Below are positions 1 to 1,937 of a stretch of DNA of 64,000 nt, in pieces. The notes under the pieces are model-generated. The model saw nothing but the letters and a program-made list of their open reading frames with translations, made no database searches and was not told the origin of the DNA. The DNA lies in assembly GCA_023665525.1 (NCBI GenBank), contig JAMPDT010000003.1, positions 4,682 to 68,681 of the forward strand, given 5' to 3'. The position numbers were made by a program, and so were the translations under genes. This DNA comes from Butyrivibrio sp. (GTDB lineage: Bacteria > Bacillota > Clostridia > Lachnospirales > Lachnospiraceae). The stretch's first letter is position 1; every line of letters starts with the position of its first letter.

Positions 1-154
1 TATCGCGATTATCGGCATCGTGTGGGTGGAGGTCACGGGAGTGACGGGGACCTATGCGGCAAAGACGAAGGCGCTGAATAAAATTAAGCTTATAGGAAGC
101 CTGCCCGAGGAGCTTCGCTCGCAGGTTGACCTGAATCAAATCATAAACAATTAA
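1..154 (+). CDS. 3' end of small membrane protein, putative phage holin-like (partial)
   Basis: Manual translation of frame 2: IAIIGIVWVEVTGVTGTYAAKTKALNKIKLIGSLPEELRSQVDLNQIINN*, stop TAA at 152-154. Hydrophobic segment plus basic tail, directly upstream of an endolysin with an SD (AAGGAG) in between. Confidence 0.5.
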   Translation, partial: IAIIGIVWVEVTGVTGTYAAKTKALNKIKLIGSLPEELRSQVDLNQIINN

Positions 155-166
155 GGAGAGCTTTAC

Positions 167-1105
167 ATGGCGGAAACTTTTACTCCGAGACTTACCGCGC
201 CCGATAAAAGCAACGAAAATTATTACAGTGACAAAAACCCTTTTTACGCGTATAAGGACGAAAACGGCAGCCGTCCGTTAATGATGCCGAACTGCACCGC
301 GTATGTCTACGGGCGGCTTATGGAAATCACGGGCAGAGGCTTTGACGGGCTTATAGGTGGAAACGCCCATACATGGTACGGCAAGGCGGCTGAGGCGGGG
401 CTTGAAACGGGCGCGTCGCCAAAGCTCGGCGCGGTATGCTGCTTTGACGTGACGGACGGCGGAGCCGGACATATTTCCGTCGTTGAGGAAATAAAGGCAA
501 ACGGGGATATTGTCACCTCGAACAGCGCATACGGCGGCAGCGTGTTTTATCTGAAAACCCTGACTGCGGCGTCGGGCTATAACTACGCGCCTACAAGACC
601 GTTTAAGGGCTTTATATACTGCGGAATCGAGTTCGGGGACGGCGGGGAAAAGCCGCCTGCGGGAGAGGTAAGCGCGGGGCTTGAGGTAACGCTGAATTCC
701 GTACCCTGCTATGAGAGCGAAACCGCCGCGTCCGAGTACGACCGAAAAACGGGCAGATATTTTCTTTGGGACAGCACGGTTGCAAACGGGCGCGTCAGAA
801 TTACAAATACCGCCGACAGGGTTGGCGCGGCGGGGCAGGTGACCTGCTGGATAAATATCGCGGACGTGGGACTTACCGAGGAAAGCGGGGAGCCGATTAT
901 AAAGGCGGGGGAGAAATACGAGCTGAAAAAAGCCGCCGTTTACGACAGTGAAACGGGAGCCTCCGTCGGGACGCGCACGGGGACGTATTATGCTTGGTCC
1001 GAGGATATTGTAAACGGGCGTGTCAGAATGACCAACAGCGCGGCGAGAGCGGGAGAAAAGGGGCAGGTCAGCTTTTGGACTGACACGGATTCGTTGAAAA
1101 AATAG
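167..1105 (+). CDS. CHAP-domain peptidoglycan hydrolase (endolysin-like) with two C-terminal SH3-like repeats
   Basis: CHAP motifs PNCTAYVYGR, GNAHTW, GHISVVE, SNSAY. Duplicated ~60-aa C-terminal module (GRVRITNTADRVG..GQVTCW / GRVRMTNSAARAG..GQVSFW). Confidence 0.8.
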   Translation: MAETFTPRLTAPDKSNENYYSDKNPFYAYKDENGSRPLMMPNCTAYVYGRLMEITGRGFDGLIGGNAHTWYGKAAEAGLETGASPKLGAVCCFDVTDGGAGHISVVEEIKANGDIVTSNSAYGGSVFYLKTLTAASGYNYAPTRPFKGFIYCGIEFGDGGEKPPAGEVSAGLEVTLNSVPCYESETAASEYDRKTGRYFLWDSTVANGRVRITNTADRVGAAGQVTCWINIADVGLTEESGEPIIKAGEKYELKKAAVYDSETGASVGTRTGTYYAWSEDIVNGRVRMTNSAARAGEKGQVSFWTDTDSLKK

Positions 1106-1178
1106 CCGCGCGGCAGCCCTGTCATGCCGTACCGTCTGCGGCTTTGGCGGAGAGCCTGCTCGGACGGAGCCGAAAATT

Positions 1179-1219
1179 TCATACCTTACGGCGCAACGCT
1201 CCTCCGTATTGGCTTATGA
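1179..1219. other. Candidate hybrid attachment site (attL/attR)
   Basis: TACGG (1187-1191) and CCGTA (1204-1208) are symmetric about CG at 1197-1198, with an outer TCATA/TATGA pair offset by 3 nt. Coincides with the cotJC break. Confidence 0.5.
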
Positions 1220-1292
1220 TAACCATAGCTGCCTTCGGGTCGGGATTTTTGATGTTTACGGGAAATTCAAGTCTTTTTTCGTATACCCACAT
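1179..1292 (-). pseudogene. cotJC: 5' fragment of spore coat Mn-catalase-family gene cotJC, interrupted
   Basis: ATG at 1292 overlaps the cotJB stop (TAATG). Translates MWVYEKRLEFPVNIKNPDPKAAMVIISQYGG, the classic CotJC N-terminus, then ALRRKV* instead of (P/A)DGE. Confidence 0.9.
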
Positions 1293-1564
1293 TATGCCAT
1301 TCCTCCTTCCCAAGGCCATTCTTCGGCAACCCATGTCCAGTAATCCTCGGATTTGACGTCGGTAAACGCAATCGGTCCGTAGGTCTTTATATATTCGTTG
1401 TAGTATTCTTGATACTGCTCGTTAAGGCTGTGGTAATTTGAAAGCGCTCCGCAGTCGTCGGGATGTGTGTCAAGGTAGAGCGACAAATCGTAAAGCGCGA
1501 AAAAATATTCGTCTATCCTGCGCATAAGCTCGCATTTTGAAAGCTGTTGGCATTGCTGACTCAT
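1292..1564 (-). CDS. cotJB: Spore coat protein CotJB
   Basis: FALYDLSLYLDTHPDD, YGPI, W.W..EEWPWE motifs; lies between cotJA and cotJC. Confidence 0.92.
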   Translation of the reverse strand: MSQQCQQLSKCELMRRIDEYFFALYDLSLYLDTHPDDCGALSNYHSLNEQYQEYYNEYIKTYGPIAFTDVKSEDYWTWVAEEWPWEGGMA

Positions 1565-1902
1565 CGTTTACAGCCTCCTTTCCCGAGAAAAGGTTTGTCA
1601 AGCTCGGTGTAAATTGTGCCTGCCGTAAGGGCGCGCTCCACGTCATATGTGGGACTGCCCGTTTTTTGGTTGACCACGCCCGCAACCGCAAGGGAGCAGC
1701 AGGGGTTAGTGTCGTCGCCGCAGGAATTTTTTACCGGGCAGGAGGGACGCGTCTGTGCGCGCGCAGGCACGTCGGAGGGACATGACGGCTGCGAGGGGCA
1801 GGCGGAGGGTGCGGCGCTCCGGCAGCCCGAAGCGTTGGTGCGCGGGTTCTGACAGCCTGAGCCTCTTGCGCCGTATGCGCGTTGATTGTGATAATAAGGC
1901 AT
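1561..1902 (-). CDS. cotJA: Spore coat associated protein CotJA (Cys/Pro-rich N-terminal extension)
   Basis: C-terminal LAVAGVVNQ..YDVERALTAGTIYTELDKPF motif. Probable start ATG 1902 after SD GAAAGGA. Confidence 0.85.
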   Translation of the reverse strand: MPYYHNQRAYGARGSGCQNPRTNASGCRSAAPSACPSQPSCPSDVPARAQTRPSCPVKNSCGDDTNPCCSLAVAGVVNQKTGSPTYDVERALTAGTIYTELDKPFLGKGGCKR

Positions 1903-1937
1903 AAGAATTCCTTTCATAAAATTTAATCTTCAATAAT

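Follow-up and report, generated by a model that had tools for sequence, protein, structure and literature searches.

The stretch of DNA described here, a window of 64,000 nucleotides from the 2.52-Mb draft genome of a Butyrivibrio species (G000; contig C124, positions 4682-68681), opens upon a sporulation gene that has been cut apart. This gene, cotJC, encodes the Mn-catalase of the spore coat and lies downstream of cotJA and cotJB, and its coding sequence is interrupted close to the left edge of the window. Contig C124 runs 4.7 kb further left, and over the whole genome cotJC is found as five pieces on three contigs (C124, C174 and C135), parted by four elements that are named A, B1, B2 and C in the order of the gene. 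Each element carries its own large serine recombinase (LSR) gene within about 100 bp of one junction. The split gene is probably still used, and would be rebuilt during spore formation by four LSR reactions. SpoIVA is intact in this genome, so the organism is taken to be a spore-former, and in Bacillus subtilis cotJC is expressed in the mother cell.

The upstream part of the operon is ordinary. Both cotJA (118 amino acids; window 1561-1917, minus strand; PF11007 CotJA, E 7.9e-10) and cotJB (90 amino acids; window 1292-1564, minus strand; PF12652 CotJB, E 2.8e-26) are complete, and the latter is 86-87% identical to its orthologues in G019 and G008, two other species of the same genus (hereafter the sisters) for which independent assemblies exist. 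The cotJB stop overlaps the cotJC start (ATAATG), from which MWVYEKRLEFPVNIKNPDPKAAMVIISQYGG is encoded and then the tail ALRRKV* (window 1179-1292). An earlier note on this DNA had recognized an N-terminus of CotJC at this coupled ATG, and it indeed aligns to positions 1-32 of the PF05067 (Mn_catalase) profile with 25 bits (E 1e-5), a score under the 27-bit cut-off because the piece is only 31 codons long. This first piece (codons 1-31, ending in QYGG; window 1200-1292, equal to C124:5881-5973, minus strand) is 100% identical in protein sequence to the corresponding piece of G019. The homology ends after GG, where relatives continue with PDGE and where the tail had been noticed in place of the expected DGE, although the break lies exactly at window 1200 and not at about 1197 as first placed. 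As encoded, the ferritin-like domain of CotJC, of about 190 amino acids and with both ExxH metal motifs, is therefore not continuous.

The interrupting DNA at this point is element A (C124:2743-5880, 3.1 kb, with 3,132 bp between its attachment (att) sites), of which window 1-1199 is a part and which extends 1.9 kb left of the window. Its ends consist of an 8-bp common core and inverted arms of 17-19 bp (ATACCTTACGGCGCAAC / GCGTTGCGCCGTAAGGTAT), which is the anatomy of LSR attL and attR sites. The core, ACGGAGGA in cotJC sense, occupies window 1200-1207 on the minus strand, and the same eight bases stand before PDGE at C124:2743-2750. The element-side arm of attL(A), GCGTTGCGCCGTAAGGTAT (window 1181-1199, minus strand), is the reverse complement of the arm ATACCTTACGGCGCAAC that adjoins piece 2, and it is this attL(A) arm that encodes the spurious tail ALRRKV*. 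In both sisters one core position differs between attL and attR (GGAGGA versus GGCGGA), which confines the exchange to ACGG or the final GGA. Directly after the recombinase gene, cotJC resumes in frame with PDGEAAASMRYLSQRYSMPDKRVAGLLTDIG. The earlier note had looked for the 3' part of the gene on the minus strand beside a recombinase gene. The resumption at PDGE, the strand and the neighbouring LSR were all as foreseen, but what follows is a piece of 31 codons (piece 2, PDGE..TDIG; C124:2651-2742, minus strand) and not the 3' part.

Element A holds only four open reading frames (ORFs). The LSR gene (LSR-A, 494 amino acids; C124:2769-4253, minus strand) adjoins piece 2 and is transcribed divergently from the other three, which are a 57-aa ORF (C124:4394-4567, plus strand), a holin-like gene (88 amino acids with two transmembrane segments; C124:4569-4835, plus strand; phrog_17876, E 1.8e-9) that starts 112 bp before the window and has its 3' part at window 1-154, and a CHAP-domain endolysin gene (312 amino acids with two C-terminal wall-binding repeats; window 167-1105, plus strand; PF05257, E 2.7e-13). 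Both lysis genes had been reported from the window in this opposite orientation, and the CHAP ORF ends 94 bp beyond the break in cotJC. Their presence at the junction, and the fact that relatives of element B2 are real prophages (in genome G022 and in Roseburia phage Jekyll, see below), would speak for a reading in which the window shows the lysis-side end of a complete, inducible prophage seated in cotJC. The contig sequence left of the window refutes this and leaves it practically no likelihood: the element measures 3,132 bp between its att sites and contains no structural, packaging or replication genes. It is instead a mini-element that has diverged about as much as its hosts in three species. 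In A-type elements checked from other species and families no holin-endolysin cassette was found, and it is thus specific to the clade of this genome and the two sisters. The C-terminal repeats of the endolysin (window 650-1100) are 47-65% identical to repeats in host proteins (G000:C66:25946-26674 and C122:2-193), and probably represent a wall-binding module common to the lysin and host surface proteins.

Scanned in full with PF05067, the genome gave only four cotJC pieces, on two contigs and without overlap, which cover profile positions 1-32, 30-65, 64-150 and 147-197; no second copy of cotJC was found. The PF07508 LSR genes of the genome also number exactly four, and all of them are at cotJC. 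Their products are 21-31% identical to one another, and all keep the YxRxS nucleophile motif and match the phrog_95 integrase family. LSR-A, LSR-B1 and LSR-C match PF00239, PF07508 and PF13408 (resolvase, recombinase and zinc ribbon), whereas LSR-B2 has a weak PF00239 match (40 bits), PF07508 and no Pfam zinc-ribbon match, with phrog_95 aligning over its full length.

The fifth piece is only 9 bp long (C174:5590-5598) and was located by an unbiased genome search for an inverted copy of the B2 arm beside piece 3. This search gave a single match in the genome, on C174, as a 19-bp perfect inverted repeat, and immediately before it stand the cotJC-matching bases TAGGGACGGAAGA, which encode (I)GTEE. 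The 13-bp match (C174:5586-5598) includes two shared cores, and the nine bases between them form a micro-piece that completes GTEE, flanked by B1 with its right end and by B2 with its left. A single element between pieces 2 and 3 had been considered, which would give DIGRELAH, one codon short and with a T to R change; it was dropped once the micro-piece was found. The remaining pieces lie on C135, with piece 3 starting at ELAHFE (C135:15962-16174) and piece 4 at C135:6782-6931 plus a tail.

Element B1 (C124:1-2650 plus C174:1-5585) separates piece 2 from the micro-piece. Its recombinase (LSR-B1, 565 amino acids; C124:1001-2698) adjoins the end of piece 2 after DIG and runs over its own att junction, such that its last 15 or so codons are the antisense of cotJC piece 2. 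The C-terminus of LSR-B1 would accordingly differ between the integrated and the excised form. This arrangement resembles that of Roseburia phage Shimadzu, whose integration site lies inside its integrase gene (bioRxiv 10.1101/575076). A terminator-like hairpin at the start of B1 faces cotJ transcription. The right end of B1 has a low guanine-plus-cytosine (GC) content. In the cargo (C124:258-620 and C174:703-5179) a MazF/PemK toxin is present, for which no clear antitoxin ORF was called, and so are both members of an AbiEi/AbiEii pair, an ABC transporter (ATPase and FtsX permease) and an orphan response regulator.

Element C, of 9 kb and low GC, separates pieces 3 and 4. In addition to an LSR of 584 amino acids it carries a defence island (C135:9931-15729) with a helix-turn-helix gene, a Fic/PDC-S72 gene (E 2e-134), two GmrSD-like (DUF262) genes and a 155-aa ORF of no known type, at a GC of 0.33-0.37 compared with about 0.52 for the host. 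No phage structural genes were found in the seen parts of B1 and C, the cargo of which is of the toxin-antitoxin and defence kind. Element B2 begins at C174:5599 and extends up to C135:16175, with its recombinase gene (C135:16210-17904) adjoining piece 3. Divergent from it lies a 59-aa ORF (MSEKTMILKFDNCTVTIRRPDLSPEEYERRF...; G000:C135:18084-18263) with a weak, sub-threshold match to YrzI (E 0.017), a possible partner or directionality factor. No contig-end overlaps were found for C124, C135 and C174, and B1 and B2 are therefore not closed.

Shared cores are present at the ends of all four elements, namely ACGGAGGA for A, TAGG for B1, GA for B2 and GCAGA for C, accompanied by inverted arms of 17-19 bp for A and B2, clear ones for C and weak ones for B1. 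When the five pieces are joined in silico at these cores, one uninterrupted ORF of 197 amino acids results, in which QYGGPDGE, DIGTEELAH and DLAAEQKAR are intact across the four predicted joints (CAATACGGAGGACCTGACGG, GGATATAGGGACGG, GGAAGAACTCGC and GCGGCAGAGCAAAAGG). The joined CotJC scores 164 bits against PF05067, like intact relatives, and contains both TEELAH and REVVHF. In public data, the best match to an uninterrupted CotJC (95% protein and 83% DNA identity) comes from another species and is not an empty site of the same species. In a related species the uninterrupted locus reads GGDEF-cotJB-cotJC (intact)-response regulator-purA-MatE, which joins the flanks found here on C124 and C135.

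The two ends of B2 differ from those of the other elements in that their inner sides are ordinary chromosome with the GC of the host. From C174:5599 onward come DUF1848, RumA, a radical-SAM protein and an AAA ATPase. On the other side, from C135:16177 onward, LSR-B2 and a further 460 bp are followed by MIF, by genes for membrane proteins, a sigma factor and a serpin, and by the trp operon. In G019 these two series are contiguous, in the order AAA-radical SAM-RumA-DUF1848, then 3.8 kb without an LSR, then MIF-membrane-sigma. Given this adjacency, and the intact cotJ locus of the related species, this genome shows a reciprocal exchange between the B2 site of cotJC (site 2b) and the DUF1848/MIF locus. 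On one circular chromosome such an exchange would amount to an inversion. Its origin is likely to have been either an inversion event with one of its breakpoints in a former B2 prophage or an intramolecular attP x attB recombination. No B2-type LSR was found between DUF1848 and MIF, as a resident attP state would show, in a search of the genus. B2-type matches in that search occurred only at cotJC, in G022 and G011, in addition to a 32% relative in G015. The complete genome G001 is uninformative for synteny, being rearranged with RumA about 500 kb from cotJC.

With a draft of 190 contigs and an estimated contamination of 2.2%, the pieces might conceivably derive from co-binned strains or species, or from chimeric joins. 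The arrangement of the junctions makes such an artefact very improbable. Three pairs of junctions each lie within one contig (A with pieces 1 and 2 on C124; the micro-piece with the B1 and B2 ends on C174; and piece 3, C and piece 4 on C135), and the pieces tile cotJC with neither overlap nor gap. The two B2 contigs, moreover, reach opposite sides of a single locus, which G019 has in one continuous stretch, an outcome not to be expected of a random chimera. An assembly chimera at the first break had been named as a danger at the outset, and here too the junctions of A, with the 19-bp arm GCGTTGCGCCGTAAGGTAT, recur in the independent assemblies of both sisters.

Selection provides the strongest argument for rebuilding of the split gene, though it dates only element A. 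An orthologous element A of 3.07-3.16 kb with the same four ORFs occupies the same site in both sisters. LSR-A is 70-79% identical among them, compared with 76-94% for neighbouring host proteins, and the LSR, holin-like and endolysin genes have synonymous divergences (dS) of 0.9-2.1 with ratios of nonsynonymous to synonymous change (dN/dS) of 0.05-0.17; against the orthologues in the sisters, the endolysin gene has 0.13-0.16 and the holin-like gene 0.05-0.10. The att(A) arms are conserved in the sisters while the adjoining element DNA has diverged. Since the divergence of A matches that of host genes, its insertion is older than these species. Over 135 codons, compared between this genome and G019 or G008, cotJC itself shows a dN/dS of only 0.008-0.018 at a dS of 0.7-1.0. 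Because this constraint held while the gene was split by A, it would follow that the gene must be reconstituted.

The principal rival explanation, irrespective of any earlier role of element A, holds that the three younger events have already killed cotJC in this genome: a conserved but dispensable gene would have served as a safe landing site, B1, C and the B2 rearrangement would have inactivated it for good, and nothing would be rebuilt. Several observations agree with it. The GC of B1 and C is foreign (0.33-0.46 versus about 0.52) and their cargo (MazF, AbiE, GmrSD-like, Fic) is mobile; another family has a C-type LSR of 78% identity but a CotJC of only about 58%, a sign of recent horizontal transfer; the inner sides of B2 are ordinary chromosome; and Clostridium difficile mutants in cotJC-type genes have no gross coat defect (PMC11222575). 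Even so, a dead gene appears unlikely, as none of the cotJC pieces contains a stop or a frameshift, all four cores match and join exactly in frame, and all four LSRs are intact. The first 135 codons show a single amino-acid change unique to this genome despite a dS of at least 0.7 to the sisters. Additionally, species that have held A since before their divergence keep cotJC at a dN/dS of 0.01, so in this lineage the gene is not a dispensable one.

The reading that is favoured here, in which cotJC is rebuilt, would proceed as follows. In the terminally differentiated mother cell, each LSR would recombine its own attL with its attR precisely, probably assisted by a small directionality factor, and the four reactions together would restore, behind cotJA and cotJB, the gene for a Mn-catalase of 197 amino acids. 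Element A would then be an old, domesticated unit, whereas B1 and C, of low GC and with defence or toxin-antitoxin cargo, look like recent mobile islands. B2 would be the truncated integrase module of a prophage, its att sites left far apart by the chromosomal inversion. Candidates for the small partners are the 57-aa ORF of LSR-A, a 66-aa ORF before LSR-B1 and the 59-aa ORF of LSR-B2, none of which matches a known family in Pfam or PHROGs. Beside A-type LSRs, a family of small ORFs (about 50-70 amino acids, with the motif L-S/T-x-E-E...LN..A..A.GY) recurs at no fewer than 12 loci in different families, with a conserved GAATAGCATATA block upstream, and constitutes a candidate directionality factor for these loci.

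Other findings weigh against a gene that is still rebuilt. The links between the left and right parts of B1, and likewise of B2, rest on the symmetry of att arms and the continuity of the gene and not on contiguous sequence, and the inverted-repeat match of the B1 arms is weak, consisting of a block of 9 bp that is offset by 2 bp. In the genus as sampled, only this genome has elements B1, B2 and C, so that selection dates A alone and a recent inactivation by the other three could have happened. The promoter scan gave no confident sigE or sigK promoter, and no directionality factor is established for B2. Restoring the B2 junction would moreover need an LSR-mediated re-inversion, a route that follows if attL(B2) and attR(B2) are inverted relative to each other, or else the excision of a very large arc.

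The use of cotJC as a target is not confined to this genome. Among 40 relatives surveyed, 30 have a cotJC match, and in at least 14 of these the gene is in pieces, with breaks at the same three regions. Each type of LSR recurs at its own cotJC site elsewhere: the A type in six genomes (protein identities of 70% in G019, 79% in G008, 61% in G004, 57% in G017, 41% in G028 and 40% in G036), the B1 type in one (G031, 68%), the B2 type in three (G022, 44%; G011, 40%; G029, 32%) and the C type in one (G028, 78%). In G022 the B2-type element carries phage genes and a cI-like repressor and is a true prophage. Genome G011 holds both an intact cotJC-type gene (C49:1263-1814) and a second copy that is split by a 39.5-kb element with a B2-type LSR (C2:44515-84538). 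A profile built from A-type LSRs found 80 loci across many groups of Clostridia, in Lachnospiraceae, Oscillospiraceae, Acutalibacteraceae, Defluviitaleaceae, Petroclostridium, Sinanaerobacter and others. A cotJC piece is present at 58 of them, nearly always broken at about codon 31 beside the LSR, and many of these loci also have a middle piece ending near codon 65-69, so that at these a further site is occupied as well.

The closest relative of LSR-B2 in an isolated phage is the integrase of Roseburia phage Jekyll (LR596902.1; 40.6% identical). The Jekyll record starts and ends with GAATT (L130:3040-3090 and L131:1-40), and when its ends are put together ATATCCAACAT is followed by GAT, GAATT and then ATGTTGGATAT. 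These inverted arms are built like the reconstructed attP of B2, and the E-L codons of cotJC accommodate the core, which suggests that the attB of Jekyll lies in the cotJC gene of Roseburia intestinalis. The publication of this phage does not state that it integrates into cotJC (bioRxiv 10.1101/575076). Jekyll is an active, mitomycin-inducible siphovirus, and B2 by comparison keeps only the integrase and about 1 kb.

A bolder extension of the rebuilding model is that cotJC acts as a four-input DNA logic gate, with catalase made only if all four LSRs, which are unrelated to one another, fire in the mother cell and one of these flipping a large segment of the chromosome. Element A would then be a domesticated phage remnant, its holin and endolysin kept for lysis of the mother cell and release of the spore and possibly restrained by antisense read-through from cotJ until excision. 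This scheme is offered as a speculation to which little credence is given as a whole. Its idea of a phage lysis cassette co-opted for spore release is nonetheless testable.

For spore-formers, the known cases of programmed DNA rearrangement concern single elements in a handful of genes. In the present case four elements occupy one gene of 594 bp, at four fixed docking sites, each with its own lineage of recombinase, and possibly no rearrangement locus of gut spore-formers is used more heavily than cotJC, which is almost undescribed in print. The locus also provides presumably orthogonal pairs of LSR and att sites whose natural targets lie within a few dozen bases of each other, a candidate new family of directionality factors and the possible restoration of a gene by chromosomal inversion in Firmicutes. 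It is an annotation trap as well, in that the pieces of a split cotJC are missed or called pseudogenes.

The known systems of this class are skin in sigK, SPbeta in spsM, vfbin and gin in gerE (PMC5595907, PMC4191935, PMC5025042). The skin element is managed by SpoIVCA in B. subtilis and, as skinCd in C. difficile, by the LSR CD1231 with the directionality factor CD1234 (PMC5025042). As here, it is a defective, prophage-derived element with an LSR at its edge that interrupts a mother-cell sporulation gene and whose precise excision restores the ORF, and element A, like skin, appears to be vertically inherited and domesticated. In contrast to skin, the target encodes a coat enzyme and not a sigma factor, element A measures only 3.1 kb, and four elements share one gene; excision has been demonstrated for skin, while here it is inferred. 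SPbeta (SprA with SprB; PMC4191935, PMC5499854) and the gin element of Bacillus cereus ATCC 10987 (GirC with GirX; PMC5595907) each combine an LSR with a small directionality factor and have attL and attR sites with a short common core and inverted arms. The elements described here differ in having a single LSR each and small partners that are candidates without a known family. Cargo other than phage genes occurs in this class, as gin shows, and B1 and C are like gin in that no phage genes are among theirs.

As a target of integration, cotJC has been named before, by Abe et al. 2013 (as cited in bioRxiv 10.1101/2021.11.22.469490) and in Laceyella sacchari (bioRxiv 10.1101/2022.02.25.481979), where it is likewise interrupted by a skin-like or phage-related element. 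The cases in these reports are single interruptions mentioned in passing, with no site map, selection evidence, multi-element case, lysis mini-element or inversion. No description of several elements in cotJC, of a site map, of a mini-element with a conserved lysis cassette or of a junction that requires inversion was found in the literature. A precedent for restoration that includes inversions is the nifBHDK cluster of the cyanobacterium Calothrix sp. NIES-4101, in which seven excisions and two inversions have been experimentally shown to restore the genes in heterocysts (PMC11249958). Both systems have many cuts in genes of a terminally differentiated cell, a recombinase gene beside each repeat and a need for inversion in some of the reactions. 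In Calothrix, however, the cell is a heterocyst, whereas here it would be the mother cell, with five pieces of a single small gene to be rejoined and an inversion that is deduced from synteny.

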